Source: a virus
Taxonomy: Duplodnaviria; Heunggongvirae; Uroviricota; Caudoviricetes
Virus record (IMG/VR): IMGVR_UViG_2529293063_000008
DNA: 16,953 nucleotides
Direction: 5' to 3' (one strand)
Shown: positions 286 to 16,761 of the stretch, one piece after another
How positions within the stretch are numbered: the stretch's first letter is position 1
Layout of the letters: each line of letters starts with the position of its first letter
Notes under the pieces: generated by a model
What the model was told of the DNA's origin: nothing
The model's database searches: none
What the model saw: the letters and a program-made list of their open reading frames with translations, nothing else
Made by a program: the position numbers and the translations under genes

Positions 286-1362
286 TTACTCAAATAACTT
301 TTTCACTTCATCAACTGTCTGAAGATAACGTTCGCTCTCAATCTCAATACCTATTGCCTGACGTCCTAACTTCAGCGCAGCTTTAATAGTTGAGCCTGAT
401 CCCATAAAGAAATCGGCAACGATATCTCCGGGGCGTGAACTACTCTTTATAATATGTTCCATCATCGCTGCAGGTTTTTCACATGGGTGCTTGCCAGGAT
501 AATATTGCACAGGAGGAAACTCCCATACATCGGTATAAGGTACATCAGCAGTAACATGAAATGGACGGCGTAAATTTTCATACTGCACCTTCAAATCATC
601 ATACTGCTTCTTTACTTCCTCATAATGTAATTTCAGATCGCTATAACGCTTTTCATGTTCTGAATAATCAACATTAAAAGGATATGGACACTGGACACCG
701 AGTGAATCTGCCTTCCTGCGAAATAATTCGCATAGTTTATTAAAATCAATTAATGATGGAAGCCGCCACTGCGAATAAGAAAACCAGTGTGAACACATCT
801 GCTTTCCTGTCGCTGAATTAATGTCTGCGGCTGATATATCTAACTGACGGCGAGCCAGCGAAAAAGCATCAATTAGTGGAGAAAAAATATTTTTTCTTAA
901 ATCTGCACATTTTGAAGCATAACCTGACTGACCTTTCGCATAACCTGACGCGCCGTAATGCTCTGCAAATAATATTCTTTCAGTAGCAGGAAAATAAGCC
1001 CTTAAACTTTCTTTATGACAACCGCGCCACATACCACTGGGTTTAGCCCAAATGATATGGTTCAGAACATTGAAACGGTCGCGAGTTAATAATTCAATTT
1101 TTGACGCAAGGCGAGAGCCGGTAAACATATACAGGCTGCCATTAGGGGCCAATATCCGCCAAAATTCTGCCAAAAATTCGTCAATCCACCCCAAAAAGTC
1201 AGCATCGCTATCCCACTGGTTATCCCATGCGTTAGCCTTTACGCCGAAGTATGGTGGGTCTGTTGCAATCAAATTGACCGAGTTATCAGGGATGGTTTTG
1301 ATAAATTGCAGAGAATCTGCGCAAACGAGTTGCGCGCCATGAATATTAGTGGTTTTGAACAT
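286..1362 (-). CDS. DNA methyltransferase, beta-class amino-MTase (N6-adenine or N4-cytosine), orphan (no restriction partner seen)
   Basis: DPPY motif (ATDPPYFG) near the N-terminus and FxGSG motif (FFMGSGSTIKAA) near the C-terminus, i.e. motif IV before motif I. Start taken at ATG 1362 (MFKTTNIHG...); the longest ORF starts at ATG 1407. Confidence 0.8.
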   Translation of the reverse strand: MFKTTNIHGAQLVCADSLQFIKTIPDNSVNLIATDPPYFGVKANAWDNQWDSDADFLGWIDEFLAEFWRILAPNGSLYMFTGSRLASKIELLTRDRFNVLNHIIWAKPSGMWRGCHKESLRAYFPATERILFAEHYGASGYAKGQSGYASKCADLRKNIFSPLIDAFSLARRQLDISAADINSATGKQMCSHWFSYSQWRLPSLIDFNKLCELFRRKADSLGVQCPYPFNVDYSEHEKRYSDLKLHYEEVKKQYDDLKVQYENLRRPFHVTADVPYTDVWEFPPVQYYPGKHPCEKPAAMMEHIIKSSSRPGDIVADFFMGSGSTIKAALKLGRQAIGIEIESERYLQTVDEVKKLFE

Positions 1363-1454
1363 AGCTATTATTTTTTTGCCTGGGTAAGCTAACCCGGCGA
1401 TGCGCATCGCGGGTGGGCTTTAGGTTCAGCCTATAGCTCTGGCATGGGTTGACC

Positions 1455-1497: not shown

Positions 1498-1519
1498 AAA
1501 AAAACCGCCATAAAGGCGG
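1498..1519 (-). terminator. Intrinsic terminator (minus strand)
   Basis: CCGCC-ATAAA-GGCGG hairpin (1505-1519) next to an A7 run (1498-1504) on the plus strand, i.e. hairpin plus U7 on the minus-strand transcript. Confidence 0.5.
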
Positions 1520-1558
1520 CTTGTTAGCTGTTGGGTACAAAAAACCCAACTTAACAAA

Positions 1559-1587
1559 ACAATAACTAAAAACCGTCATTTTGCCAA
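1559..1587 (-). promoter_or_regulatory. Candidate sigma70 promoter (minus strand) feeding a short leader that ends at the 1498-1519 terminator
   Basis: On the minus strand TTGGCA (-35, 1582-1587), 17-nt spacer, TATTGT (-10, 1559-1564). Confidence 0.25.
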
Positions 1588-2257: not shown

Positions 2258-2569
2258 ATGTTTAACGTGATAACCCACCCTGCAGCACTGGATGAACTGC
2301 TTGAACTACCAGATGATTTGCGAGGTCGCATGACCAGATTAATTGAGCGACTGGAGAAAGAAGGCAACAAACTGAAGATGCCCCATAGCCGTGTAATAGG
2401 TGGAGGGCTTTTTGAACTACGAGTAGGGGATAAAAACATCGCAAGAACGCTGTACGCCTACGCGACTGGTAACGAAATTTATCTATTGCATGCATTTGTA
2501 AAAAAGACACAGAAAACACCGGTGAAGGCTATCGAAATCGCCAGAACTCGCCTGAAGGAGATGAACTGA
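2258..2569 (+). CDS. Type II toxin, RelE/HigB-fold, gp49-like family
   Basis: 103 aa, SD GGAGG 7 nt upstream. Sequence ...GGGLFELRVGDKNIARTLYAYATGNEIYLLHAFVKKTQKTP... matches my memory of HigB/gp49-type toxins. Toxin-first order with a 1-nt overlap (TGATG) to a downstream HTH gene. Confidence 0.8.
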   Translation: MFNVITHPAALDELLELPDDLRGRMTRLIERLEKEGNKLKMPHSRVIGGGLFELRVGDKNIARTLYAYATGNEIYLLHAFVKKTQKTPVKAIEIARTRLKEMN

Positions 2570-2856
2570 TGAAAGCGAAAGGCATCCCGTTTAACGAAGT
2601 AAAAGAAAAACTTCTCAACACTCCAGAAGCCATCAAAGGATATGAAGAGGCCGATAAAGAGCTGGAGATGGTCGAAATGTTATACGAAATGAGGGAAAGA
2701 GCAGGTTTAACGAAGTCAGCTCTGGCTGAACGAATGGGATTGCGCCCGTCAGCTATCAGCCGCCTGGAAAGCAATCCTTTAGGGGCAAGCATGAAAACTT
2801 TATCAAAATATGCCCAAGCATGCGGTGCAACGATTAATATTAATGCCGTCTATTGA
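2569..2856 (+). CDS. HTH (XRE-family) antitoxin, HigA-like partner of the gp49-like toxin
   Basis: 95 aa; HTH segment LTKSALAERMGLRPSAISRLE; SD AAGGAG 9 nt upstream; start overlaps the toxin stop. Confidence 0.8.
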   Translation: MKAKGIPFNEVKEKLLNTPEAIKGYEEADKELEMVEMLYEMRERAGLTKSALAERMGLRPSAISRLESNPLGASMKTLSKYAQACGATININAVY

Positions 2857-2899: not shown

Positions 2900-3118
2900 T
2901 CAATGATGTAAACTCTCAACAGCAATAACTTGTTGGCAATTCTGAGCTATCTCCCGCGACATACTAACAAGTCGTGAAATCTCGCCAAGATGCAAGCTGG
3001 CTTCTGGAGAAGCCAGAGCAACGCTAACCAGATCCAAAACGGCGTCGATGTCTTTTAGGTTTGATCCGAGTTCTTCAAGAGTTGATACAGGTGCTTCAGT
3101 CATTGAATCTAATACCAT
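2900..3118 (-). CDS. Hypothetical 72-aa protein, candidate SOS-regulated gene
   Basis: ATG at 3116-3118; promoter region 3119-3187 contains a LexA-box match and an operator-like 17-mer. Protein MVLDSMTEAPVSTLEELGSNLKDIDAVLDLV... is acidic and has no motif I recognise. Confidence 0.5.
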   Translation of the reverse strand: MVLDSMTEAPVSTLEELGSNLKDIDAVLDLVSVALASPEASLHLGEISRLVSMSREIAQNCQQVIAVESLHH

Positions 3119-3142: not shown

Positions 3143-3158
3143 CTGTATAAAATTACAG
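3143..3158. promoter_or_regulatory. LexA (SOS) box CTGT-N8-ACAG
   Basis: TACTGTATAAAATTACAGGG (3141-3160) matches the E. coli SOS-box consensus TACTGTATATATATACAGTA in both CTGT/ACAG arms and the AT-rich centre; 25 nt upstream of the 72-aa gene start. Confidence 0.6.
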
Positions 3159-3168
3159 GGTAAAACTC

Positions 3169-3185
3169 AAATTTTATAGCCAGCT
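3169..3185. promoter_or_regulatory. Distal copy of the repressor-operator-like 17-mer AAATTTTATAGCCAGCT
   Basis: Exact 17-nt identity with 7098-7114 in the cro/repressor intergenic region. Confidence 0.5.
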
Positions 3186-3187
3186 TT

Positions 3188-3342
3188 CAATGGATTAACT
3201 GGTTAAATATCTTTGTAGTCCGATACTTATGTTCCCTTCCTGCGCCTCGCCCAACCACTTCCAAAAGCCCATCACCACCATCAGAAAAGCTCTTTTCGCT
3301 CCGTTTTCGTATCATTTCAAAAAGCAATGCCTTTTTGTCCAT
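3188..3342 (-). CDS. Small hypothetical protein (51 aa), below the ORF-track size cutoff
   Basis: ATG at 3340-3342 with SD GGAGGGG 4-5 nt upstream; translation MDKKALLFEMIRKRSEKSFSDGGDGLLEVVGRGAGREHKYRTTKIFNQLIH; stop at 3188-3190. Confidence 0.3.
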
Positions 3343-3352
3343 TTACCCCTCC

Positions 3353-3364
3353 GTGACCAGTCAC
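3353..3364. repeat. Palindrome GTGACCAGTCAC (GTGACYRGTCAC family, copy 1)
   Basis: The same 12-mer occurs at 8592-8603 and as its reverse complement within CCCCGTGACTGGTCACGGGG at 13196-13215. Confidence 0.4.
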
Positions 3365-3687
3365 ACTTTGAGCGCAAGTTTCAGCCTCGTGGTTGTAAGG
3401 TGGCATGAGCCTTCACCATCAAAAATGCATTCTGAAACAGGCATTCTTTGACCACATCGCGGACAAGTAGTAGATAGCTGTTTCTGCAACTCCTTATAGT
3501 TTTTCCTGATCAGCAGTCCGATGACTTCGTTCTCTGAATATGGAACTCGCCCTGGTCTACGCAATACACAAATTTCCCCCAACATACGTAACTCGTCAGG
3601 TTCCAGAATCCAGTCCCGTCTTGATGTGCCTTCCTTCTTCAACCGTTCCCTGCGTCTCCTTTGCCGTTCTGCAGCTGTCAGCGCCAT
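3361..3687 (-). CDS. Small basic protein with C-terminal zinc-ribbon-like CxxC motif (108 aa)
   Basis: ATG at 3687 with SD AGGAGG; N-terminus AERQRRRRERLKKEG is highly basic; C-terminus has CPRCG...C.H. Confidence 0.55.
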   Translation of the reverse strand: MALTAAERQRRRRERLKKEGTSRRDWILEPDELRMLGEICVLRRPGRVPYSENEVIGLLIRKNYKELQKQLSTTCPRCGQRMPVSECIFDGEGSCHLTTTRLKLALKV

Positions 3688-3702
3688 AAATCCTCCTGAA
3701 AA

Positions 3703-4362
3703 TTACTTAACCCAATTAACTACACCGCCAGCGGCCACAACCGCTTTTTCACAGTCACGCTCATATCTCAAAGGTTGAAATACACCATCAATAAAATATT
3801 TATCTCCACCACATGCTGCAGGAAGTGAAACAGAAAACTGAATATGACCATCCGGAGTTACCGGAGAGTTGCCAGCCTCATACGCGACCCTTATCCAGTG
3901 CATAAGCATTTCTGTACTTACACATCCACAATCAACATCAATTTTGTCATGCTGCTGTTCCAGCCATTGCTCAAAAGTTAACTTGTAAGTTTGGCTTACA
4001 GGTTTGGCTTCCAGTTCTGCTATGTGATTTTTGGCTGATTCCAACTCAATCGACAATTTTTCCAACTGCTCTTTATGCTTTTTATATTCCTGATATGCGT
4101 GCCAAGACTGACCTTTGCGCACACTATCAGTAATATCAGTAATCTGTTCTGGTGTTAGCGTGGTCAGTGGCTGTGTTGGGAAAATAAGCACTTTCCCGGA
4201 ATCCCAATCAAAACCAGCGTGAATTGACTGAACCTCAACTGAAGGTGTTGAACCAATGCTGCCAGGCGAATGAACAACGATTGTTACATCCATATCGCGA
4301 CGATGGCTGTGGTTGTTGGACAAAATACGATTCACCAACTCAGAAAATTTGGAAAATTTCAT
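3703..4362 (-). CDS. Hypothetical phage early protein with central coiled-coil (possibly Ea22-like)
   Basis: 219 aa; ATG at 4362 with SD AAGGGGG; its start overlaps the upstream stop (ATGA). Coiled-coil-like KEQLEKLSIELESAKNHIAELEAK; family assignment is from memory only. Confidence 0.5.
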   Translation of the reverse strand: MKFSKFSELVNRILSNNHSHRRDMDVTIVVHSPGSIGSTPSVEVQSIHAGFDWDSGKVLIFPTQPLTTLTPEQITDITDSVRKGQSWHAYQEYKKHKEQLEKLSIELESAKNHIAELEAKPVSQTYKLTFEQWLEQQHDKIDVDCGCVSTEMLMHWIRVAYEAGNSPVTPDGHIQFSVSLPAACGGDKYFIDGVFQPLRYERDCEKAVVAAGGVVNWVK

Positions 4363-4649
4363 GCTGATCCCCCTTTCTCTGCTCTCTCCTGTCGGAACAT
4401 CACTATCATCAGGTCGCCTTTTGTCGCTATCCTGGCTGTTGTACCTGGTTCAATGCGGCCAAGTTCAAATGCGTCATAGAACGCCTCCAACGCTTTCTGG
4501 CGTTTTTCCTGTTTGCGGCGCTTTCCCCACTGCTTTAGAAAAACAGAGGCCGCCCACTTCCCCGCACTGAACATGATGTAAAACCAACCGAGAAGTGCCA
4601 GACCGGTATTTAGGGCCATATCGATCGTTATCGTGGTGTCGATATTCAC
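4359..4649 (-). CDS. Small membrane protein (about 96 aa)
   Basis: Start chosen at GTG 4647-4649, preceded by SD AGGAGG with a 7-nt spacer and overlapping the upstream stop (TAGTG); ATG 4619 is an alternative. Hydrophobic segment LALLGWFYIMFSAGKWAASVF. Confidence 0.45.
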   Translation of the reverse strand: MNIDTTITIDMALNTGLALLGWFYIMFSAGKWAASVFLKQWGKRRKQEKRQKALEAFYDAFELGRIEPGTTARIATKGDLMIVMFRQERAEKGGSA

Positions 4650-5068
4650 TACGCCACCTCCTGAAAATTTCCCTGATAAAACGCCAACACACGCTGCATA
4701 ACTTCGCTCTTCCGACAATCGTGACAAATCATGTTCAGGCGCCTGTCGTAGCGACGTATTTCTCCGTCAGGTAATGACCAGATAAGGTCTGGATCAACCA
4801 CTACCGATTTCTTCGGCTTTACTCTTGATAGTTTTTTACGGGCGTTTTGCCAGTCCTTGCGTGCTTGTGCAGACAGAAATATCCCGGAGCCAGAGATATA
4901 CAAATCACCACTGGCAGCAAGCTCTCTTGATAAACGACTAACAGCACACCGGCTAATACCAGTTTCATCCGCAAGTTGCCTAACCGTTCCTCGTCCATTC
5001 AGGCGCACGAGTTCCACAATTTGTTTATTCAGTTCTTCCCTCTGTTCTGGTGTAAAAGCCTTTGCCAT
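4649..5068 (-). CDS. HTH DNA-binding protein (139 aa)
   Basis: ATG at 5068 with SD AAGGAG 7 nt upstream, overlapping the upstream stop (TAATG); HTH-like RQLADETGISRCAVSRLSRELA. Confidence 0.6.
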   Translation of the reverse strand: MAKAFTPEQREELNKQIVELVRLNGRGTVRQLADETGISRCAVSRLSRELAASGDLYISGSGIFLSAQARKDWQNARKKLSRVKPKKSVVVDPDLIWSLPDGEIRRYDRRLNMICHDCRKSEVMQRVLAFYQGNFQEVA

Positions 5069-5667
5069 TACGATTCTCCTTGCCCTTTTACAAGACGGGA
5101 GAAAATTGCAGATACATATTTAGCCTGATGAATAGCATCAGCCAGGGCATTGTGTCGTTCGCCATCAAATGGCATATCTTTTTTAGGATTAAAACCAATA
5201 AACTGACCAAGATTAACGATTGTTCGAACATCCTGATCATTAAAATATTCCCACGGACAGGATAAGCCAACGCGCTCATAAGCGCCGCGTAAAATTACAT
5301 TATCGAACGTTGCTCCATTTCCCCATACTTTCAATGTTTTTAAATTACAAGCATGGCAAGTAATAAAGTGTGATAATTCAAAAAGTGCATCATTAATATC
5401 AAGGGCATCATTAGTACAAATTGCGGCTCTGGCTTCCTTGCTCTGCCGCAACCACCATAAAATGGTATCACCATCGGCAACACCACCATTTAACATCGAG
5501 CTTCTGAGATTCACTGGTACATAAAAAGTGGCACCTAATTCCTCACTTTCAGGAGAAAAAAACACTGCCCCGATAGAAACAATTGGAGCACATGTATTAG
5601 TACCCATTGTTTCAAGGTCAATCATTACATCAGACCGTTTCCTGTCGTAAATTATCTGATTAGTCAC
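5068..5667 (-). CDS. DEDDh-type 3'-5' exonuclease (DnaQ-like fold)
   Basis: 199 aa; Exo I-like MIDLETMG near the N-terminus and Exo III-like HNALADA near the C-terminus; GTG start at 5667 with SD GAGGAG 8 nt upstream (ATG 5625 is an alternative). Confidence 0.75.
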   Translation of the reverse strand: MTNQIIYDRKRSDVMIDLETMGTNTCAPIVSIGAVFFSPESEELGATFYVPVNLRSSMLNGGVADGDTILWWLRQSKEARAAICTNDALDINDALFELSHFITCHACNLKTLKVWGNGATFDNVILRGAYERVGLSCPWEYFNDQDVRTIVNLGQFIGFNPKKDMPFDGERHNALADAIHQAKYVSAIFSRLVKGQGES

Positions 5668-5690
5668 GAATAATTCTCCTCAATGTTTAT

Positions 5691-5864
5691 CTATGCCCAA
5701 AACTTCTGTTGATATGTTCTGGATGGTTTTGGTGCTCTTTCTGATTCAGGTAAATGAACATAAACGCAATATCCATCACCTAAAAAATCAGAACGAACAA
5801 CCAGAACTTTCTTACCACGCCGCCGATAAGTATCTGAAAGACGCTCTGCCTCATCATGCGTCAT
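5691..5864 (-). CDS. Small hypothetical protein (57 aa from ATG 5864)
   Basis: The longest ORF begins at GTG 5918 inside the 5900-5919 palindrome; ATG 5864 (SD AGGGG) and ATG 5894 are more plausible starts. Confidence 0.4.
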   Translation of the reverse strand: MTHDEAERLSDTYRRRGKKVLVVRSDFLGDGYCVYVHLPESERAPKPSRTYQQKFWA

Positions 5865-5874
5865 CGGCCCCTGT

Positions 5875-6177
5875 TTAAATGGCGTTATTTTCATTTTCTT
5901 GTGCGACCGTGGTCGCACCCTCTCTAATTTCCAGATAACGCTTAATCCAAAGATTTTCTATATGCTTATTACCTGGCTGATTTGATAAATACCAATCGGC
6001 AATTACAGACTGCTTATTACTATCGGGTCGTGTCCTGTAACCGCAAGTTGGACACCAGATGACATATTCATTTCTTACCCCCGAATACCTTAATTCTGGC
6101 TTCGACGGTTTCCTGAACATAACTTGTTTACAAAGGCAGAATGGCACTTCCTGCCCGATGGCGTTTGATGATTTCAC
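5875..6177 (-). CDS. Zinc-finger protein, possibly Lar-family restriction-alleviation protein
   Basis: Two Cys pairs (PFCLC ... CPTCGYRTRP) about 27 aa apart, followed by ADWYLSN, in the pattern I recall for Lar-like proteins. Start set at GTG 6177 (SD GGAG) so that both Cys pairs are included; overlaps the upstream gene by about 50 nt. Confidence 0.4.
   Translation of the reverse strand: MKSSNAIGQEVPFCLCKQVMFRKPSKPELRYSGVRNEYVIWCPTCGYRTRPDSNKQSVIADWYLSNQPGNKHIENLWIKRYLEIREGATTVAQENENNAI
5900..5919. repeat. Centromere-like palindrome, copy 2
   Basis: TGTGCGACCGTGGTCGCACC; core identical to 1606-1625 and 8345-8360. Lies inside coding sequence at the junction of two small genes. Confidence 0.5.
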
Positions 6178-6838
6178 TGCGCTTCTCCGCCGCATTTAAT
6201 AATGCGGTTCGATTTAAGCTCAGACATCGCGACTTAATTAAAAGCCAGCGTTCTTTATAATCTTGTCTCCAGCTATCAATAGATATATTCAGTAGAAAAC
6301 TCAGATGCCTGTCCTGTTCTCTCTCATCAACTGCCTCAGCACACGTAAGTTCTGATTTAACCTGCTGTGCCGCGTAATAAATCAATTTCCGCATGGCTTT
6401 TTTCGTGGAGGCCTTCATTTTTTTAAAGCCGCCCCCCGAATGAGCAACCAGAAAATCAAGCCATAACCACTGACAAACAATCACATCATTGTTGTAGTCA
6501 GGCTTGCATCCGTAGCAATAATAAAGCCAGGCTGATTCCTCGTTATTCAACTGACAAATAGCCCTGCGCCAGCTGGCGCTCTGAAAATCAATATCAGTGA
6601 GCAACATTGATGATTGTTTAAATGTTTTCCCCTGGTGGAATCTAACCGGCTCAGCGGGAACGGACACTTCGTATGAGTTATCATCCCCCACACTGATTGA
6701 CCGGACTGGTTTATTGTTAAACCGTCCTGATCTACCGAGACGCATCTGCTCAAGCTGGACCTCCAGAATGCCACGCTGGCGATAATGAACATCAGCCAAT
6801 GCCGTAGAGACGCAGCTGCGTATATACTCAAGCTCCAC
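6128..6838 (-). CDS. Hypothetical regulatory protein immediately downstream of cro (position of a cII- or Q-like early regulator)
   Basis: 236 aa; GTG start at 6838 overlapping the cro-like stop by 11 nt (ATG 6745 is an alternative); Cys-rich segment WLYYCYGCKPDYNNDVIVCQW. Function not assignable by eye. Confidence 0.5.
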   Translation of the reverse strand: MELEYIRSCVSTALADVHYRQRGILEVQLEQMRLGRSGRFNNKPVRSISVGDDNSYEVSVPAEPVRFHQGKTFKQSSMLLTDIDFQSASWRRAICQLNNEESAWLYYCYGCKPDYNNDVIVCQWLWLDFLVAHSGGGFKKMKASTKKAMRKLIYYAAQQVKSELTCAEAVDEREQDRHLSFLLNISIDSWRQDYKERWLLIKSRCLSLNRTALLNAAEKRSEIIKRHRAGSAILPL

Positions 6839-7049
6839 GCTTACGACTCTCCTTAATCGACTGCTTTACCCGCCGAGTTGTAAAGTCACTCTTCAGCTTG
6901 TAAGCAGTACGAACTTCAATATCGCTTTGCCGCAATGAAGGAATCTCTCCAGCGGTTAACCATTGGTAAACAGCTCCGGGTGTTACACCTACCCCTGCCG
7001 CTGCTTTTTCAACACTGCCAAAGTGGCGAATAAGTTCTTCTGGTTTCAT
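6828..7049 (-). CDS. Cro-like HTH regulator
   Basis: Start moved to ATG 7049 (MKPEELIRHFGSVEKAAAGVGVTPGAVYQWL...); HTH motif; divergent from the repressor gene across an operator-containing intergenic region. Confidence 0.65.
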   Translation of the reverse strand: MKPEELIRHFGSVEKAAAGVGVTPGAVYQWLTAGEIPSLRQSDIEVRTAYKLKSDFTTRRVKQSIKESRKRGA

Positions 7050-7080
7050 GTTGTTATTATAAACAATAAACAATAATTAA

Positions 7081-7134
7081 AGCCAGCTATAATAAATAAA
7101 TTTTATAGCCAGCTATAAGAAGATCATTTATGAT
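7081..7134. promoter_or_regulatory. Immunity-switch operator/promoter region with two operator copies
   Basis: AGCCAGCTATAA at 7081-7092 and 7109-7120; the second sits in TATAGC-CA-GCTATA with perfect 6-bp arms (7103-7116). TATGAT (7129-7134) lies 6 nt before the repressor ATG, suggesting a leaderless repressor mRNA. Confidence 0.5.
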
Positions 7135-7140
7135 TACAGT

Positions 7141-7737
7141 ATGAAAACACGAGGCGAACGACTGAAAGCACGCCGTTTAGAGATGAAGCTGACGTTGCGA
7201 GAAGTTGCTGAGGCTGTCGATATCTCTATAGCAGGCGTCCAAAACTTAGAACGTGGCGACGTAATGCCGTCACTGGAGATAGGTATTGCCCTGGCTAAGT
7301 GCTTACGCAAGCCAGTACATTGGGTGCTATATGGGACAGAATATGACCCTGATCGCATTCCTGTTATTGGCACAACTGAAAGTGGGCCTGATGAAGAGTG
7401 GAAGCCGGGACAGGTTCCAAATACTGAGCGATTCCTGCCATTCATCAGCCAGCGCAATACTGTGTATGCGTTAACTATCAGCAATCTTACGCAGGGAAAC
7501 TATCAGCCAGGCGATTTTCTCCTGGTCGATTCTGCGCTGGAACTGGTCCCCGGCGAGGATGTTCTGGTTCGTGATACTGCAGGAAATATCACTATCCAGC
7601 GCCTAGCCCGTTTTGATGATGAAAATTACTATCTGGATGGAACAAACTCACAACGCGCTATCTTCAGGAAAAGCGATCTTGAATTTGTTCACCAAATAGT
7701 CGGAACGATCAAATCATTCATGGTTGAGGGTAGATGA
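7141..7737 (+). CDS. CI-like prophage repressor (N-terminal HTH, C-terminal S24-like domain that appears to lack the catalytic lysine)
   Basis: 198 aa; HTH LTLREVAEAVDISIAGVQNLERG; C-terminal GDFLLVDS...GEDVLVR...ITIQRLAR resembles LexA/CI (GDLLAV...VTVKRL) but has Q where the catalytic K is expected. No Ala-Gly in the linker. Confidence 0.8.
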   Translation: MKTRGERLKARRLEMKLTLREVAEAVDISIAGVQNLERGDVMPSLEIGIALAKCLRKPVHWVLYGTEYDPDRIPVIGTTESGPDEEWKPGQVPNTERFLPFISQRNTVYALTISNLTQGNYQPGDFLLVDSALELVPGEDVLVRDTAGNITIQRLARFDDENYYLDGTNSQRAIFRKSDLEFVHQIVGTIKSFMVEGR

Positions 7738-7839
7738 CTTAATACGGGGTTTATTGTTTGCTGTAAATCTGGTTTAATGCAGGGCATATGTTCTGTGGGT
7801 TGACTCAGGTTACAGCAGCAGAAAAAAGACGAAAAAAAA

Positions 7840-7868
7840 CCCGAGTCGGCAAACTCGGGTCCTTTTCA
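7840..7868 (+). terminator. Intrinsic terminator downstream of the repressor gene
   Basis: CCCGAGT-CGGCAAA-ACTCGGG hairpin followed by TCCTTTTC; preceded by an A8 run, so possibly bidirectional. Confidence 0.55.
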
Positions 7869-7982
7869 GGAAGCAGCCACAGTAACGCGACGGATTCCGT
7901 CAATTCAAGATGCGTTTATTGTGGCTGCTCCTGCGGATTTTTTCAACCCGAAAAAACATAATTCGCATGGAATGGCTAAAAA

Positions 7983-10900
7983 ATGACATTAAACGATTTC
8001 TATGCGGATCGCTTTGGCAGCGATCCGTTCTCGCTAATTGAAGCAGCACGGGATGAACTAACCGAGCTGGCACAGATGGCTGGTATCAACTGGCCTGCCT
8101 GTTCCGACAACATCCAACTCAACCCTCGCGGGGGTGTTGAGCGTTACTCTTCATACAATAAAACATCTCCAGAAGCTCTCGAGAAGAGCCTCAAAGGACG
8201 CGTAGAAATTTACTCCCGGCTGGAACACAGCAAAGGGATTGATTACCCGTTCATTAACTTCGTCCATAAAGGCAGCGATGCTGGCTCATGGAGCGGTTTC
8301 TCCTTCCTGTTTTCTGAATATCGCCGTGAGCAACAACGGAATAATGCGACCGTGGTCGCACAACCGGAAGAAGAACGGGCAAGAATAGAACGTCAGGCCG
8401 AAGCACGTCGTCGCCGTGAAGAACAAAAACGAATTAATGACCTGAAAAACAACCAAATTGACCATGAACGTTTGCTGGGATGGCTGGCATTTCACAGCGC
8501 GTGGGAACATGCTCCTGCAGAAGACGGCTCATGGCCATATGCGATTAAAAAAGGTATTCGTGACGTTTTTAATTCGTGTGATGTGCGTCGCGTGACCAGT
8601 CACGACAGCGCAAAATGGAGCAGGGGGCCAACCACGTATATGGCTATCCCTCTGGCTCACCTGGACGGTCGTTACGATGGTCGTATTGTGGGTTGGCAGC
8701 GAATCGACAAACAAGGTGGAAAATACCAGACCAGCGCAGTAACCAGCGGCGATTTCGTCGGTGCCTGCTTTGTTATCGGTGAGCTGAAAGGGGCGCAAAA
8801 CATCGCTGTTACAGAAGGTTTTGCTACTGGTGCATCCATCTGGCTTGCCACGAAAAAAGATAAACGCTTTGACGCTGTGGTTGTCGCTGTATCCGCTAAC
8901 AACATGGTTCATGTTGTGGAACAACTGGTAAACATGTACCCGGCGGCAAAAATCACCTGCGCACTGGATAATGACCGGAAATCTGCCACAGAAGGAAAAG
9001 GGAATACCGGCCTGCGGACTGGCTATGAAATCTTATCGAAATTCAACGATGTCCGCTGCGTCTATCCAACTTTTGAAGACGATCCGCAAATGGAGTGCAG
9101 TGACTTCAACGACCTGCACAAACTACGTGGACTTCGTGAAACAGCACGTCAACTATTTGCAACAGCAAACCGCCTGAAAACTGGTACTGATTTGCTATCT
9201 CTGACGCTCAACCGCCTGAAGACAATTAAGCGGGATAACCGTCGTACTTTTGCCAAAGAGCTGCTGAGAGCGGTGGATATTGGCATGCTAACCTGTCCGG
9301 TTCCTAACAGTCCGTCAGATTTATTTAACATGTTCTGCATCGTTCTGCGTGAAATGGGACTGGAAAATATCTATCGCGCTACGGTAAAAGACCACATTGC
9401 CCGTCGCCTGAATAAAAAGTGCCGTATTGCCCAGGCTCCGCGCTCTTTCAGCGAACGCATAACTGATCCCAATAAACGCCCTCAACATATCACATATAAG
9501 CGTTTTGAAACTTCGGTAATGACCGATGATGTCCTGAAGTACGTGCAATCACTACAGGGGATAGTCATCGTCCGTGCTGGTATGGGTTCCGGCAAATCTA
9601 CTGGATTGTTACGACCGTTAATGCATAGCTCAGAACGTGGTATCTCTGTTGCTCACCGTGTCTCCCTTATTGGCGGCCTGTGGGAAATGATGACAGAAGG
9701 AAAAGGTGTAAAAGCCGATATCCTGCACTATCAGGATCCTGGCTATCAGGAAATAGCTCCATACGCCAGTAAACTGACCATCTGCATAAACTCGATTGTT
9801 AAAAACTGCTGGCAACCGTTGATGCGCCAGCACGACTATTTTGGCTTTGACGAGGCCACACAAGGGCTACGTGCCGTTCTTTCCGGTCGGGCTATGGAAA
9901 ACCCGGTGGCTGTATTCAATACGCTAATTGACGCGCTGGCCAGAACAGAACAACACCCAATCATGGTGGATGCTGATGCGAATGATCTGCTGGTTGACCT
10001 GGCTGAACTGGCTATGAAACGCCGTGAAGAACTAGGTTTACCGGCATGGCTGCAGATCCACGTAATTGAATTACCTGTTGATGTTCGCAACCGCGAAACA
10101 GGTGAGCCAATCCGGGTTTTTTATACAGAAAAAGATCGCATCATGACCGAGGTGGTGAAAGCTGTATCGGATGGCGAAAAAATCATGTTGGCCACCGACA
10201 GCTCCACCTTTGCAGAAGATGTGACAGCCACCCTGAGAATGCATTTTCCTGGTAAGAAATTTCTGTGTGTAAACCAGAAAAACAAACCAGAGCCAGAAGT
10301 TGAAGCATTTACCAATCAACCGAAAAAGATGGTCAAAAAATACGACGGCCTGATTTATAGCCCGTCTATTTCATCCGGCGTGTCGATTGAGCAAAAACAT
10401 TTTGACCGTCATTTCGGCATGTTCTGTGGTGAAGTTGTACCCAGCGACGCAGTGCAAATGCTACGCCGCGACCGTACAGCAAAAGAATTTATTATCGGCT
10501 TTGATAAAGCTCGTGCAAAACGTGAAACTGACCCGCAAAAAATAGAACGAGCATTCGCCCAGGCATTGCTTGCTACCGCAGGTATGAACGGTGAACTGAC
10601 GGATGTCGTTTTCGATGGCGACCGTATATCAATGGGGGTGGCCAATACCGACTTTACCAGGATGAAAATTAAAGCAGCCGCTATTGAAGCGACTGCGCGT
10701 AACGACTACGCCAGCAACATGATCTGCATCATGCACAGCGACGGTTATAAGGTATCGCCGCTGGCCACCGATTATGCTGCGAATGATATCGGTAAAGAGC
10801 TGCGTAAAGAAGCGCGGGATATTGTGTGGGAACAGACACTGGATCTGCATCTCAATACAGAAACTCCACAAGAATCAGAGCGTGAAGAACTGCTAAAAAA

Positions 10901-11978
10901 ACGCGCGCTGACGCTTGAAGAACAGGCAAAACTTGTCCGCTGGGATATTGAAAACGAACTGAAACTACCGGTTGAAGAAGGCACGCTGAAATTCTATTTC
11001 GATGGTGCTCGAGACAAAGTTCGCCGCTATGAAACAATGCTTTTAGATGAGGTAACAGCTCGTCGTTACGACCGGGAAGAAGCAGCCATCAATTTTACCT
11101 ACGCATACCGTCAGGCGGGACAGTGGCAATATTTTGTAGTGACCGCGATGACTCGCGAGCAGGCTGATGATGTCTTTAAAACTAAATTCCCTGGAATAAT
11201 CGATCACAAGGTAAAAGCTACTCCTACTGTTGAAGTCGGGGCGCGCGGTTTCTATGCGCTTAAATCAGCAACTCTCCGGCAGTACTTTATCGACTGCGGT
11301 ATCAACCCTGAGACTATGACCGGCGAGGCGACTCAGGAGCGTCTCAAATTTGCTCGAGATAACCTCATGACAGCCGAACGCCGTGACCTGTTGAATAACG
11401 TTCTGCACATTGGTGGTTTTATGACGCCAAAAGGGAAGCCTAAAGTGCCGGAAGCGTTGTTTAAAAACATTTGCGACTCTCTTGGCCTTAAAACAGGTAA
11501 ACGTCGCGGCAGAGACGGCGATAAGCGTCCAACCTTGCGTTTTGTTGAGCCTGAATCAGCGGCATTTATGCTGGATATTCTTGCTCAGCGTCAGAAAGAT
11601 GGCCTAACCCTGAAAACGCGTAAAGCCGAGAAGACCGCCATCGAAATGGATCGCGATTTGGATCTCAATATATATATGGATGATAAAACGCGATCCACAA
11701 ACGAGCAGGTTCAAAACGCCCCTCATTCAGTAATTTCTGAGGCTTTGGCTGTGTTGCCAGTGGTTGTACCTGAGTCCTGGGCGATGAGTGCGCTTTCCGG
11801 TGAGGAGCTGGCCACTATGTCATCATGGTCATCAGCCAGCATAGCTATGACGTTTGCATCTCTGTACCTCACAGAGTTCATGGATCACTTATCCAGCAAT
11901 GAACTGCGGCGGTTACGTGAATACATTACCGGGAATAGCCCATGCAGCTACGAAGAGCAGGGCGCTTTCTATGGGTAA
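7983..11978 (+). CDS. repA: Multidomain replication protein: primase (TOPRIM) fused to a P-loop helicase/NTPase, N15 RepA-like
   Basis: 1331 aa; TOPRIM-like IAVTEGFATGASIWLA ... ITCALDND; Walker A VRAGMGSGKST; size matches my memory of N15 RepA. Confidence 0.85.
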   Translation: MTLNDFYADRFGSDPFSLIEAARDELTELAQMAGINWPACSDNIQLNPRGGVERYSSYNKTSPEALEKSLKGRVEIYSRLEHSKGIDYPFINFVHKGSDAGSWSGFSFLFSEYRREQQRNNATVVAQPEEERARIERQAEARRRREEQKRINDLKNNQIDHERLLGWLAFHSAWEHAPAEDGSWPYAIKKGIRDVFNSCDVRRVTSHDSAKWSRGPTTYMAIPLAHLDGRYDGRIVGWQRIDKQGGKYQTSAVTSGDFVGACFVIGELKGAQNIAVTEGFATGASIWLATKKDKRFDAVVVAVSANNMVHVVEQLVNMYPAAKITCALDNDRKSATEGKGNTGLRTGYEILSKFNDVRCVYPTFEDDPQMECSDFNDLHKLRGLRETARQLFATANRLKTGTDLLSLTLNRLKTIKRDNRRTFAKELLRAVDIGMLTCPVPNSPSDLFNMFCIVLREMGLENIYRATVKDHIARRLNKKCRIAQAPRSFSERITDPNKRPQHITYKRFETSVMTDDVLKYVQSLQGIVIVRAGMGSGKSTGLLRPLMHSSERGISVAHRVSLIGGLWEMMTEGKGVKADILHYQDPGYQEIAPYASKLTICINSIVKNCWQPLMRQHDYFGFDEATQGLRAVLSGRAMENPVAVFNTLIDALARTEQHPIMVDADANDLLVDLAELAMKRREELGLPAWLQIHVIELPVDVRNRETGEPIRVFYTEKDRIMTEVVKAVSDGEKIMLATDSSTFAEDVTATLRMHFPGKKFLCVNQKNKPEPEVEAFTNQPKKMVKKYDGLIYSPSISSGVSIEQKHFDRHFGMFCGEVVPSDAVQMLRRDRTAKEFIIGFDKARAKRETDPQKIERAFAQALLATAGMNGELTDVVFDGDRISMGVANTDFTRMKIKAAAIEATARNDYASNMICIMHSDGYKVSPLATDYAANDIGKELRKEARDIVWEQTLDLHLNTETPQESEREELLKKRALTLEEQAKLVRWDIENELKLPVEEGTLKFYFDGARDKVRRYETMLLDEVTARRYDREEAAINFTYAYRQAGQWQYFVVTAMTREQADDVFKTKFPGIIDHKVKATPTVEVGARGFYALKSATLRQYFIDCGINPETMTGEATQERLKFARDNLMTAERRDLLNNVLHIGGFMTPKGKPKVPEALFKNICDSLGLKTGKRRGRDGDKRPTLRFVEPESAAFMLDILAQRQKDGLTLKTRKAEKTAIEMDRDLDLNIYMDDKTRSTNEQVQNAPHSVISEALAVLPVVVPESWAMSALSGEELATMSSWSSASIAMTFASLYLTEFMDHLSSNELRRLREYITGNSPCSYEEQGAFYG
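8345..8360. repeat. Centromere-like palindrome, copy 3 (inside repA coding sequence)
   Basis: TGCGACCGTGGTCGCA exact; encodes ...NATVVAQ... within repA. Confidence 0.5.
8592..8603. repeat. Palindrome GTGACCAGTCAC (copy 2, inside repA)
   Basis: Flanked as CGTGACCAGTCACG; same family as 3353-3364 and 13196-13215. Confidence 0.35.
11648..11696. other. Candidate internal replication origin within the 3' part of repA
   Basis: 8-bp inverted repeat GGATCGCG / CGCGATCC (11648-11655, 11689-11696) flanks the AT-rich TCAATATATATATGGATGATAAAA and includes three GATC sites. I recall the N15 ori mapping inside the 3' part of repA. Confidence 0.3.
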
Positions 11979-12162
11979 TCAGTGGATATTATCTTTGTGT
12001 CTCTTGCTTTGTGTGTTCCAGCAATGGTTTTGGTTCATAGATCGAAAGTCTCACAAGGAAAACATGAAGGCCAGGAAGGCGATGTTTCGTGGTGAACAAC
12101 TCGCGCAGACTTATCGTATGTGGAAACGTTTCTATCGTGATTTTTCGGTGAACGGGGAGTAA
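11971..12162 (+). CDS. Possible small membrane protein overlapping the repA stop (63 aa)
   Basis: ATG 11971 in a different frame from repA (8-nt overlap, ATGGGTAA); hydrophobic WILSLCLLLCVFQQWFWFI then basic tail; weak SD. Confidence 0.25.
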   Translation: MGNQWILSLCLLLCVFQQWFWFIDRKSHKENMKARKAMFRGEQLAQTYRMWKRFYRDFSVNGE

Positions 12163-13265: not shown

Positions 13266-13378
13266 TACTTCGCTGCGGTAAATCCCGTAGCCGGGACTCT
13301 CAACCCCGAAATCCGAACGACGCACAACACGCGCCAGCGTGTTTTTTTGTGTGTATGAGCCTGCGCATATCCGAATTA

Positions 13379-13460
13379 TGGTGGCTCAGGTGGGGCAGCC
13401 GAAAGGCTGGCCGGTGTCGTTTGGGCCGGTGTTGAGAACCCCGCTTGGGCTACCACCCCA
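13379..13460 (+). ncRNA. Candidate c4-type antisense RNA (P1 c4 / N15 CA RNA analogue); boundaries approximate
   Basis: About 80-nt GC-rich segment closed by GGTGG (13380-13384) / CCACC (13453-13457) with internal hairpins. Loop GGTGTTGAGAACCCC (13428-13442) is complementary to ACTCTCAACCCC (13296-13307) and ATTCTCAACTC (13466-13476), which flank it upstream of the icd-like start. Confidence 0.4.
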
Positions 13461-13679: not shown

Positions 13680-13909
13680 ATCAGGTAAAAATGAACACTG
13701 TTGGCCTGCTGGAATCGTTGGATGAACGTCTGGCTCAGGTCTATGCGCTTGTGTCATCCGCCCATCGTACAGTCTCCAGCTGTGAGGCGTCGATTTATCT
13801 CTCAGAAGCCGGGAAGCTCCTTCAAATTGCGTGTGAGTTGACACACAAAGCACAGGGGTATTCAGCATCTCTCTCGTCGCAATTGCAGCACAATAAGGAG
13901 GCCAAATGA
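13676..13909 (+). CDS. Hypothetical protein (77 aa), translationally coupled middle gene of the antirepressor operon
   Basis: SD GAGGTGG 6 nt upstream; ATGA overlaps at both ends. Confidence 0.55.
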   Translation: MNQVKMNTVGLLESLDERLAQVYALVSSAHRTVSSCEASIYLSEAGKLLQIACELTHKAQGYSASLSSQLQHNKEAK

Positions 13910-14688
13910 GCGCGTTAGCTGTATTTTCGTTTCAGGAAGAGCATCAGGTTCGTGTAGTGATGATTAACGGCGATCCGTGGTTTGTAGCGGCTGATGTTTG
14001 TAATGCCATCGGGATTATCAATCATCGTGATGCTGTTGGTAAGTTGGATGAAGACGAAAAGGGGGTCGGTTCAACAGACACCCTTGGAGGTAAACAGGGA
14101 GTGACAATTATTAACGAATCCGGCCTCTATACCCTAATCCTCCGCTGCCGTGACGCGGTGAAGCAAGGCACAACAGCTTGGCGGTTTCGCAAATGGGTAA
14201 CGAACGAAGTCTTGCCCTCTATTCGCAAAAATGGAGAGTACGTTTACGTCGAGCCAGAGCCAATGCGAGCAGCAGAGCCGTTGAACTGGAGGCAGAAAGA
14301 GTATCTGCGAGGGCTGATTAACGATATTGCACAAAGTTTTCAATACCGAAATGCCTGGATTAGCGGTGTATGGTTGGCTTTGCGTCGGGCGTGTCGTAAT
14401 CCATCCCCGAACCCCATAACTGTTGATGATTTGCCAGCAATTACGGCAGAACTGCGCCGGATTTTGACGGCTGCTGAGTCGGCATTGGGGAACATGCGCA
14501 CGTATGAACGAGAGTTGTTGCGTGATGTTGTTCGTGGTGGTAGGCGGAGTATGTCGTGTGGTGATTTGCCCATCACCGATATCAACTCTGATCTGGAAAA
14601 GGCGTTACCCGCGCATTTTGAACTGGCAGTTCAAAAACTTGAGCAGTTATCCGCGCAGCTAAAGCCAGCAGAAATCACCAATAAATAG
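13906..14688 (+). CDS. Phage antirepressor with N-terminal Bro-N/AntA-type domain
   Basis: 260 aa; SD AAGGAGG; N-terminal FSFQEEHQVRVVMINGDPWFVAADVCNAIGIINHRDAVGKLDEDEKG...IINESGLYTLILRCR...KWVTNEVLPSIRKNGEY matches the antirepressor signature as I remember it. Confidence 0.8.
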   Translation: MSALAVFSFQEEHQVRVVMINGDPWFVAADVCNAIGIINHRDAVGKLDEDEKGVGSTDTLGGKQGVTIINESGLYTLILRCRDAVKQGTTAWRFRKWVTNEVLPSIRKNGEYVYVEPEPMRAAEPLNWRQKEYLRGLINDIAQSFQYRNAWISGVWLALRRACRNPSPNPITVDDLPAITAELRRILTAAESALGNMRTYERELLRDVVRGGRRSMSCGDLPITDINSDLEKALPAHFELAVQKLEQLSAQLKPAEITNK

Positions 14689-14859: not shown

Positions 14860-16761
14860 TTAACCGAAATATGTCAGCCATGCTAACTGCATTGCTGACA
14901 TGGGGCTGTTTGCACTGCCGGACCACGCATAATTCTGGCCATTATAATGAAACTCAACAACGTATGAGCCATCACCAATATTTCTCACCGGCTTAAATAC
15001 CGGCTTAGATACAGGCGAAGAAGGTGCAGGCGGTTGCTGTTCTTCTACGCTCTCTTCCTCTTCCTCTTCCTCTTCCTCTATCTCAATTTCGTCGTCATCC
15101 AGATCGTCATCCTCTGACAATTCATCCGCCAGTTCAGGTATTGCTTCCAGTTCTTCTTCGTCAGGCATAACGATTTCTGGAGTATCTATTTTCAGTTGCC
15201 ATTGTCCGTTTTCGCCAACAAATTGCCCCAGAGCATCAGCAGCAAATTCCAGGTATCGACTAATCATTGTTGGGCTAAATTTGAACGCTCTTAGAGTGCT
15301 GTTCGTGATTTTTATAGAGGGGTCCTGCTCTACCAGCTGCTTAACTGTGTTATGCAGACGAACCCCGGCATCTCCTCTGGCGAATCCAGGCATTTCGTCA
15401 TCAAGCTGCTGCAATGCTTCCAGCCTGGTATTTTCGTTTCCAGTATTTGGCCTCCATGTCTTTGAGAAGTTGGCCAGCTTGAATTGCTTATAGTGTAATT
15501 GAGTGTTTTCATCGTCATGGCCTAAAATTTCCATAAAGAAAACATCTTCATCTACGTTTTTCCAACGAGGATCTACGCGGAAAAACATTTCATACGCAAT
15601 ACGGGCATAAATAGCACGACTATCTTTATAAACACGGCGGTCATCTTTGAAAAATGATTTAACCCACGGGTTAAAAGCCTTTGCTAATATGGCATTAATA
15701 CGTCCGTTTTCAGAGCGTGTGTCGTTATCTCCATAACCTTTAACGACATCATCAAAATCAGATGCTGCTGGGCATGAGCGAAGTACATTTATTAAATAAA
15801 CAAATGTTTTTGCTTCGCATAATGTATATATTTTTCTGGTTATATCATCAGAAGTTCTTTTTTTAGCTTGGCCTAAAAAATCAACGGTATACTTACCAGA
15901 AACAGTAAATGTACCTTGATACATAATCTCAATCATTCGTCTTCCTGACAATGCAGCAAGTGCAAATGCCAAAGGAGCCATACCTGAACGAGTGTTTAGA
16001 TTATTTAATGTAGCAGGGCTATTTATAATATCGTAAATAGCTTGCATATATTTAGGGTAATCAATGACCACCACGTTACGTTTCTTATTGTGCAGAACGT
16101 CCGCCCATCGTTGCTGGATAGATGCACGTTCGGCAGGGCTTAGTTGAAGATGATAGAGAATCTCATGGTTAACTTTTAGCTGATTCAACTCCTCAAGTAA
16201 GGCAGATCCTTGCTGTAGTAATTTATATAAATAATCGCGCTTATCTTTCCAGTTATCGCTAGTTAAATCAGAAATGGCGAATTGCCACTCTTTATATTTA
16301 TTTGATAATTTCAATAACTTATTATGACTTTTGTTATCGCCAATTCTGATATTAGATAAATCTTCTGATAGAGGGAGAATTAATTTTAATTTTGCCTGTA
16401 AAGCTGACATTCTCTGGCGAATATCGGCAGCAGGTAGAGAAAGCCATGACAATAGCTCCTCATTATATAAAGGATACTTTTCAGATAGGCGATGTATATT
16501 TTTTTCAAAGCTATGATGAAGTTTATCATCAAACCGTTTTCTGGCCCTGCTCATATAGGCATTGAATGTGTTGGCTGTAATTCTTTTTTCTAATCCTTTC
16601 CCCCTAAACTTTCGCTTGTCATTAAATAATGCATTTTTAAATTTTAATGCAACAGCCTTTATTTTTTTTGTTTTCTCCCCTTGAGGACGGTCAGAGTTAT
16701 CTATTGACTCAACATCGCTAACAAGTGAGTTTATTAATTCACCGATTTTTACTTTGCTCAT
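14860..16761 (-). CDS. telN: Protelomerase (telomere resolvase), TelN-like
   Basis: 633 aa; N-terminus MSKVKIGELIN..., length and an acidic Glu/Asp-rich stretch before the C-terminus match my memory of N15 TelN. SD AGGAGAGG. The gene abuts the terminal half-palindrome. Confidence 0.8.
   Translation of the reverse strand: MSKVKIGELINSLVSDVESIDNSDRPQGEKTKKIKAVALKFKNALFNDKRKFRGKGLEKRITANTFNAYMSRARKRFDDKLHHSFEKNIHRLSEKYPLYNEELLSWLSLPAADIRQRMSALQAKLKLILPLSEDLSNIRIGDNKSHNKLLKLSNKYKEWQFAISDLTSDNWKDKRDYLYKLLQQGSALLEELNQLKVNHEILYHLQLSPAERASIQQRWADVLHNKKRNVVVIDYPKYMQAIYDIINSPATLNNLNTRSGMAPLAFALAALSGRRMIEIMYQGTFTVSGKYTVDFLGQAKKRTSDDITRKIYTLCEAKTFVYLINVLRSCPAASDFDDVVKGYGDNDTRSENGRINAILAKAFNPWVKSFFKDDRRVYKDSRAIYARIAYEMFFRVDPRWKNVDEDVFFMEILGHDDENTQLHYKQFKLANFSKTWRPNTGNENTRLEALQQLDDEMPGFARGDAGVRLHNTVKQLVEQDPSIKITNSTLRAFKFSPTMISRYLEFAADALGQFVGENGQWQLKIDTPEIVMPDEEELEAIPELADELSEDDDLDDDEIEIEEEEEEEEESVEEQQPPAPSSPVSKPVFKPVRNIGDGSYVVEFHYNGQNYAWSGSANSPMSAMQLAWLTYFG

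Follow-up and report, generated by a model that had tools for sequence, protein, structure and literature searches.

Positions 3361-6838 of the viral record IMGVR_UViG_2529293063_000008, a 16,953-nucleotide (nt) stretch of DNA that is referred to at its full length as the window, are filled by eight open reading frames (ORFs) on the minus strand. A sequence-only reading of the window had described them as eight tightly packed leftward genes, and the ORF listing confirms this description. The run of genes diverges from a gene for a LexA-like repressor, and the same listing contains a protelomerase ORF (14860-16761, minus strand) and a 1331-residue replicase of the RepA type (7983-11978). The genes and sites of the region are given below in the direction in which the minus strand is read.

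7141-7737: cB, the LexA-like repressor gene, divergent from cro and 78% identical to its N15 counterpart
7065-7116 (approximately): O_R operators between cB and cro, two copies of TATAGC-CA-GCTATA (direct repeat D1), a candidate CB site
6828-7049, minus strand: cro, first gene of the operon, 86% identical to N15 gp39, phrog_409 (transcriptional regulator)
6128-6838, minus strand: Q, antiterminator of 236 residues, PF06323 (E 2.7e-84), phrog_304
5875-6195, minus strand: Lar-like zinc-ribbon protein of 100-106 residues, overlapping the 3' end of Q by 50-68 nt, phrog_6795 (E 2.7e-45)
5901-5918: SopB centromere site IR2, the 18-bp palindrome GTGCGACC-AC-GGTCGCAC, embedded in the Lar-like gene, 6 nt ahead of the phrog_1212 ATG
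5691-5894, minus strand: phrog_1212 protein (E 6.7e-25), 67 residues from ATG 5894 or 75 from GTG 5918
5068-5667, minus strand: 3'-5' DEDDh exonuclease of the DexA/Rv2179c family, 199 residues from GTG 5667, PF16473 (E 3e-68)
4649-5068, minus strand: DUF977 winged-helix protein of 139 residues, PF06163 (E 1.1e-29), phrog_142 (E 2.7e-42), cargo
4657-4669, plus strand: second copy of a 13-nt repeat, inside the last DUF977 codons (N-F-Q-E-V-A-stop), at the DUF4752 ribosome-binding site
4359-4649, minus strand: DUF4752 protein of 96 residues with one N-terminal hydrophobic segment, PF15944 (E 1.7e-40), phrog_667, cargo
3703-4362, minus strand: modular 219-residue protein made up of an N-terminal domain, a coiled coil, the linker GNSPVTPDG and a constant C-terminal module, phrog_6026 and phrog_368
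3847-3877, minus strand: 31-nt linker repeat encoding ..GNSPVTPDG.., the site of module exchange
3692-3704, plus strand: first copy of the 13-nt repeat (reverse complement AATTTTCAGGAGG), at the gp46 ribosome-binding site
3361-3687, minus strand: gp46 homologue of 108 residues with a basic N-terminal helix, phrog_536, backbone
3187-3342, minus strand: gp47 homologue, continuing the operon, phrog_13995
1502-1587, minus strand: late promoter (-35 TTGGCA at 1587, -10 ending at 1559) and terminator (1522-1502), from a consensus scan

By its gene content and its matches to Escherichia phage YDC107_1, PhiR46_1, plasmid records and E. coli genomes, the window is assigned to an N15-like (Ravinvirus) linear phage-plasmid of E. 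coli. In megablast, positions 3361-6838 are 97.1% identical over their full length to YDC107_1, which belongs to the genus Ravinvirus, and 96.4% identical to PhiR46_1. PLSDB holds 28 E. coli plasmid records with one place each that covers at least 80% of the query at about 97% identity. Among 5,426 complete E. coli genomes, 17 have one such place, the best of them in records of roughly 46 kb, and fragments of the region occur in 2,641, chiefly in chromosomal prophages. BLAST protein identities were obtained against N15 (NC_001901), phiKO2 (AY374448), PY54 and Enterobacter phage MStein-2023a, and the early region is syntenic gene by gene with all four. The ORFs and the BLAST comparisons with N15, phiKO2 and MStein-2023a also place the protelomerase and RepA genes near the gene order that runs from cro and Q to gp46 and gp47. 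The region adjoins the immB switch, in the right-arm early region of the element. The early operon is an ordinary, already sequenced arrangement with near-identical sequences in public databases, and it leaves current understanding unchallenged; its mosaic accessory slot is of a type familiar from lambdoid phages for a long time.

The likeness to N15 genes 39-47 and phiKO2 genes 37-47 is close. Both phages have divergent cB and cro genes with operators between them, an overlap of cro and Q, and a Lar-like ORF that overlaps the end of Q and contains IR2, followed by the small phrog_1212 ORF and an exonuclease. Further downstream come gp46, gp47, an antC-like ORF, a convergent pair of RelE and helix-turn-helix (HTH) genes, gp50, gp51, IR3 and the late promoter with its terminator. 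Shared genes are 52-92% identical at the protein level. In place of N15 genes 41-45.1 and phiKO2 genes 39-44, however, the window carries a DexA-type exonuclease, DUF977, DUF4752 and the modular 219-residue protein.

The operon is longer than 3361-6838. It begins with cro and extends at least through the gp47 homologue. The earlier placement beside the immunity switch stands (the early operon lies near cB and cro), and the earlier extent does not. The three coupled junctions that had been reported are exact: TAATG between the exonuclease and DUF977 (5066-5070, plus strand CATTA), TAGTG between DUF977 and DUF4752 (4647-4651, plus strand CACTA) and ATGA between DUF4752 and the 219-residue gene (4359-4362, plus strand TCAT). 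Further overlaps join cro to Q (11 nt), Q to the Lar-like ORF and the Lar-like ORF to the phrog_1212 gene (20 nt); other intergenic gaps of the operon measure 15-23 nt, and the gp46 and gp47 homologues are 18 nt apart. Good Shine-Dalgarno sequences precede Q, the exonuclease (GTG 5667), DUF977, DUF4752, the 219-residue gene, gp46 and gp47. A simple consensus scan, in which total hits did not exceed those in shuffled sequences, gave no promoter and no intrinsic terminator of credible quality on the minus strand of 3361-6838, and Rfam gave no RNA family there. Upstream of cro, the repeated TATAGCCAGCTATA at 7065-7116 matches the place of the annotated CB operators in N15. The tight junctions and the lack of internal signals in the scan are indirect evidence for a predicted single P_R transcript that CB would repress in the lysogen. 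A published account treats cro and Q as the sole cistrons (PMC4488713).

Q is firmly assigned, scoring 282.7 bits against PF06323 at a cut-off of 25. Its identity is 66.5% to N15 gp40, 66.5% to phiKO2 Gp38, 67% to the MStein-2023a protein and 30% to that of PY54; a sequence search of the PDB gave no useful match for Q. This disposes of the view that only the exonuclease is assignable, and every gene of the run falls into a Pfam or PHROG family. Most of the genes described as uncharacterised belong to ordinary lambdoid ren/nin-type families and N15 backbone families. No terminator was found after Q by the consensus scan. The predicted late promoter and terminator sit after the gp51 homologue, about 4.5 kb downstream of Q. 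Base for base, they align with the N15-annotated -35, -10 and stem-loop, and also with what phiKO2 lists as a 'putative late promoter' and a terminator. The pair at 1502-1587 is probably the target of Q. In lambda the target of Q is adjacent to Q, whereas here the predicted target is 4.5 kb away. The gp47 homologue at the other end of the operon has an in-frame deletion of 87 nt relative to YDC107_1 and other relatives (51 versus 80 residues).

The Lar-like gene, the first of two genes behind Q, likely starts at GTG 6177, with GGAG upstream, and its product is 79% identical to the corresponding ORF of N15, 73% to that of phiKO2, 77% to that of MStein-2023a and 47% to PY54 ORF44. The protein scores below the cut-offs of both curated Lar models (21.2 bits against 28.6 for Pfam PF14354; 19.1 against 39.6 for TIGR03655), and its 'Lar-like' label comes from the PHROG family match alone; a PDB sequence search gave no useful match. 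Like Lar of the Rac prophage, it is a small zinc-ribbon protein with two Cys pairs, and PHROGs names it 'Lar-like'. It differs from Rac Lar in its length of about 100 residues with a long C-terminal extension and in its sub-threshold Pfam and NCBIfam scores, and restriction alleviation is a putative activity. The phrog_1212 protein is 52% identical to its counterparts in N15 and phiKO2, 48% to that of MStein-2023a and 45% to PY54 ORF47. Both genes are kept without annotation in N15 (11654-11971 and 11955-12152) and in phiKO2 (7647-7961 and 7945-8142), and the apparent gap of 400 nt after Q in these two records consists of them.

The palindrome IR2, which was absent from the sequence-only reading, lies within this pair of genes and meets the N15 centromere consensus GTGCGACC-NN-GGTCGCAC exactly. 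Four SopB centromere sites of N15, IR1-IR4, have been published, and IR2 of the window is identical to the consensus (PMC7205306, Table 4). It is found in the relatives L001-L006, in N15, in phiKO2 and in MStein-2023a, and was not found in the stretch of PY54 that was fetched. Two more copies of the palindrome occur in the window: IR3 at 1607-1624, 19 nt upstream of the late-promoter -35, and IR1 at 8344-8361, with one mismatch, inside repA. In the phiKO2 record, the three corresponding positions carry the label 'putative plasmid partitioning sites'.

The exonuclease matches the structure of T4 DexA (8KEL) at E 6e-7 in a PDB sequence search. Its residues were compared in an alignment of 122 sequences, with conservation counted in 120 homologues. 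D17, E19, H172 and D177 align with DexA D7, E9, H186 and D191 and are kept in 117-119 of the 120; D122 is also conserved. Phe142 (F142) occupies the position of DexA Trp152 (W152), which recognises 5-hydroxymethylcytosine (5hmC), and F156, which is not acidic, stands at the position of D169, where the alignment is less certain. Asp93 corresponds to the tetramer-forming D90 of DexA; this residue is Ala in EcD, a DexA homologue of E. coli, and Ala in 15 of the 120 homologues. EcD cleaves only 5hmC-containing DNA and protects against T4 (PMC12153337, 2025). The window protein shares with T4 DexA and EcD (HREX) the PF16473/DEDDh fold family and the conserved catalytic residues, its own activity being putative, and it is about 60-70% identical to enterobacterial prophage exonucleases that contain EcD-like Asp-to-Ala variants. 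Unlike DexA and EcD, it is encoded in a repressed lytic operon. Its identification with the published EcD defence variant is unsupported, as the specificity residues differ by the criteria of that study.

PY54 gene 51 is 60% identical to the window exonuclease and likewise of the DexA/Rv2179c type. N15 gp41, phiKO2 Gp39 and the MStein-2023a ORF are exonucleases of the RNase_T/DnaQ type; gp41 has a C-terminal Lar domain above the Pfam cut-off, and sequence comparison finds the MStein-2023a protein closely similar to gp41, C-terminal tail included. All five lineages examined (the window, N15, phiKO2, MStein-2023a and PY54) thus have a DEDDh exonuclease in their early operon. Because every telomere phage examined has one in this operon, the exonuclease is a conserved function with a swapped family and not free cargo.

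Lambda Ren matches phrog_142 (E 1.6e-41), as DUF977 does, and in both cases the match spans nearly the whole profile. In pairwise BLAST only the C-terminal 20 residues align (E 9e-6), and the two proteins have the C-terminal motif CR.S..M.RVLA.Y in common. Ren reportedly has a role in escape from Rex exclusion, and for DUF977, which is 139 residues long against the 96 of Ren, such a role is plausible by homology. In 69 lambdoid viral contigs the DUF977 gene comes directly after the replication genes, the position of ren, whereas in the window it follows the exonuclease. In lambdoid contigs phrog_1212 and Lar-like zinc-finger genes also occur downstream of DUF977, phrog_1212 at a distance of 2-4 kb. 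Of 80 viral contigs with DUF977, 70 lie outside the N15-like phages, and the exonuclease is missing from the flanks there; a conserved functional pair of exonuclease and DUF977 is rejected on this ground. A PDB sequence search gave no useful match for DUF977, a literature search on its function returned one incidental paper, and 'LygF' proved to be no more than a label used for a Salmonella prophage region.

Between the DUF977 stop and the start of gp46 lies a slot of variable content, 965-2380 nt long in 16 relatives. Its occupants across relatives include DUF4752, DUF551 proteins, ead/Ea22-like proteins and several unnamed ORFs. The DUF4752 gene has 92-97% DNA identity with the P1-like phages D6 and Ro157c2YLVW and is missing from two relatives (L005 and L017); no literature on DUF4752 function was found. 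Every version of the slot ends in a C-terminal module, ...HIQFSVSLPAAxGGDKYFIDGVFQPLRYERDCEKAVVAAGGVVNWVK. In the window this module belongs to the 219-residue protein, which corresponds to the N-terminal 172 residues of a 249-residue DUF551 protein joined to the C-terminal module of a 176-residue protein, both encoded by a single relative (L004). In that relative the linker repeat is matched twice, on either side of about 790 additional nt, and both of its ORFs have the linker. A 32-nt core of the repeat shows 100% conservation among lambdoid phages, Stx phages included, and the fused 219-residue form is common (more than 60 clusters). Pfam finds no DUF551 (PF04448) domain in the 219-residue protein, whereas relatives that share the N-terminal 83% of it do have PF04448. 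In most relatives DUF551 is C-terminal; the window protein has a different, 47-residue module, swapped at the linker. Near the N-terminus (about 4300-4330), the 5-residue unit NRILL/NRILS is present in one to three copies among relatives, an in-frame tandem-repeat polymorphism.

Two deposited relatives of the 219-residue protein are annotated as Ea22 or pmgU. The 219-residue protein, with a long helix at residues 71-119 in a low-confidence model, resembles lambda Ea22 as described in PMC10834534 in its layout of an N-terminal domain, a long helix and a C-terminal domain. Homology to Ea22 is nonetheless rejected: BLASTP gives E 0.27, and there is no match to the solved Ea22 domain. The gp46 homologue on the far side of the slot is 78% identical to N15 gp46, 80% to phiKO2 Gp45 and 76% to the MStein-2023a protein, with no match in PY54. 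Its family comprises just 27 clusters among 5.8 billion proteins and is confined to N15-like elements; four invariant Cys residues (C75, C78, C87 and C95) are suggestive of a zinc site. The region next to the immunity switch, which had been described as variable, is so in part: the slot varies, and the exonuclease and several other genes are backbone. Comparison across relatives marks only DUF977, DUF4752 and the modular protein as clear cargo, the remaining genes being backbone. These three genes are shared with lambdoid and P1-like phages, and the 219-residue protein would have been built by exchange at the conserved linker.

Taken together, positions 3361-6838 likely form the middle part of an early transcription unit (P_R, cro-Q) in an N15-like linear phage-plasmid. 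In the prophage, CB repressor on the operators between cB and cro would keep the unit silent. Upon induction, loss of CB repression would release a single P_R transcript of tightly packed and probably translationally coupled genes. Cro and then Q would be made first, and Q would act at the distant late promoter and terminator pair. Behind Q, the backbone genes for the Lar-like protein, the phrog_1212 protein, the 3'-5' DEDDh exonuclease, gp46 and gp47 would follow, with the recombination-prone slot between the exonuclease and gp46. The accessory genes would then act in lytic growth, in DNA-end processing or scavenging and possibly, through the Lar-like and Ren-like proteins, in counter-defence. 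The evidence for this account is sequence evidence, namely identity, synteny, junctions, family matches, the centromere site and the variability of the slot. Several points weigh against it. The scan for promoters and terminators was a simple consensus scan, and SopB on IR2 might silence read-through or stop it. For seven of the eight proteins a family name is the basis of the proposed function. The structure models of two are of low confidence: AlphaFold2 failed on the gp46 homologue (predicted local distance difference test score 56.6, from a 17-sequence alignment) and on the 219-residue protein (50.0, from 22 sequences). Both models are too poor for a fold search, and PDB sequence searches with these proteins were useless.

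Three genes of the run belong to or resemble families of phage-host conflict (Lar, lambda Ren and T4 DexA), and the sequence-only reading had proposed that anti-restriction, superinfection-exclusion or defence functions reside here. Defence or anti-defence roles are plausible by homology only for these three genes and unsupported for the others. Against the proposal, no PADLOC model fits beyond marginal hits, the Lar match is below cut-off and the exonuclease lacks the residues of EcD. A rival view makes the cassette a defence or superinfection-exclusion island that would work in the lysogen, with the DexA-like exonuclease degrading modified DNA of incoming phages, in the manner of EcD, and the DUF4752 membrane protein excluding superinfecting phage. 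In its favour, even leaky expression of EcD gives protection against T4 (PMC12153337), no catalytic residue of the window exonuclease is lost, there is a toxin-antitoxin pair close by (2258-2856), and the slot shows the hypervariability common in defence hotspots. However, PADLOC-DB returned only two marginal generic-domain hits (a DEDDh model, 0.0013, and a CasR HTH model, 0.0029), NCBIfam gave nothing of substance for the operon proteins, and the exonuclease has Phe142, Asp93 and no acidic residue at the position of D169. That every telomere phage examined keeps a DEDDh exonuclease in this operon suggests a role intrinsic to the phage, and the genes lie inside a CB-repressed lytic operon. 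Because no promoter of their own was detected for the accessory genes, a role in protecting the lysogen is less likely than a lytic one, and we regard the island as improbable. We infer that the accessory genes act during lytic growth and not in guarding the lysogen. Within lytic growth they could form a dedicated counter-defence set, in which the Lar-like protein alleviates type I restriction, the Ren-like protein escapes Rex and the exonuclease removes defence nucleic acid. The strength of the phrog_6795 match, the Lar domain of N15 gp41, the phrog_142 profile shared by DUF977 and Ren, and early expression right behind Q, which fits a takeover role, make this conceivable. It is somewhat doubtful all the same, as the Lar match falls below both curated cut-offs, the similarity to Ren is at the profile level with only 20 residues aligning pairwise, and no literature on DUF977 or DUF4752 function was found.

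A different origin for the slot genes could be read from the 13-nt repeat, which occurs twice against 0.05 occurrences expected. The repeat exists as the sequence-only reading had reported, one base away from the positions first assigned. Its copies bracket exactly DUF4752 and the 219-residue gene, 965 nt apart, and homology to P1-like phages stops at 4650, by one copy, as would be expected if they were the ends of a mobile two-gene cassette. Yet one copy is DUF977 coding sequence, and in the nearest relatives with the same gene order (AATTTACAGGAGG, AATCTTCAGGAGG, AATTTTCATGAGG) one base differs. Where the slot is filled differently, the breaks in relatives fall at other points, namely the GNSPVTPDG linker and positions within the slot, and the gp46-proximal copy is kept whatever fills the slot. 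The 13-mer is rejected as a cassette boundary on the strength of the DUF977-coding copy, which differs in relatives, and of this retention, and mobile ends of this kind are very improbable. The copy before gp46 is absent from N15. The conserved core is CAGGAGG, a ribosome-binding site; the exact identity over 13 nt is best read as Shine-Dalgarno context plus coincidence.

Other features of the window flank the operon or lie at some distance from it.

2900-3118, minus strand: antC-like ORF of 72 residues, phrog_6301, with a weak match to anti-repressor phrog_10889, 57% identical to an unannotated N15 ORF
2258-2856, plus strand: RelE/Gp49-type toxin (PF05973) and HTH antitoxin, 92% and 86% identical to N15 genes 49 and 48, converging on the early operon

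Two sites, at 3143-3158 and 3169-3185, precede the ORF at 2900-3118: a LexA box that fits the consensus perfectly, CTGTAATTTTATACAG, and an exact copy, 17 nt long, of part of O_R. The ORF is probably the SOS-controlled antirepressor AntC of N15. A GC-rich stem-loop, CCCCGCCCTTCCGGACGGGG, lies at 2874-2893 between the convergent stops, and in MStein-2023a other ORFs occupy the position of the toxin-antitoxin pair. Rfam scores above the gathering threshold place isrK (54.9 bits) at 13272-13347 and a C4 antisense RNA (71.8 bits) at 13374-13460, both on the plus strand. These sites are upstream of an antirepressor-like gene (13906-14688), in a secondary, immA-like immunity region. At the other end of the window, a DNA methylase ORF (286-1407, minus strand) encodes 373 residues, of which 364 align to N15 DNA in tblastn; N15 gene 52 is annotated with 284 residues, and its start was probably called too far downstream.

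The analysis yields a corrected map that separates the N15-type backbone (Q, the Lar-like gene, phrog_1212, the exonuclease, gp46 and gp47) from swappable cargo (DUF977, DUF4752 and the modular protein). The N15 reference record lacks annotation for two conserved genes and a centromere site, and that of phiKO2 lacks it for the two genes. Two further readings are tempting, though unlikely. In one, the DEDDh exonuclease would be an obligatory early function of hairpin-telomere phages with a swappable family, and its role might lie in the replication or processing of the linear replicon or in a counter-defence need that these phages share. In the other, IR2 would be a site at which the partition complex silences or blocks the lytic operon past Q. 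If true, IR2 in the Lar-like gene would couple plasmid maintenance to the control of lysogeny.

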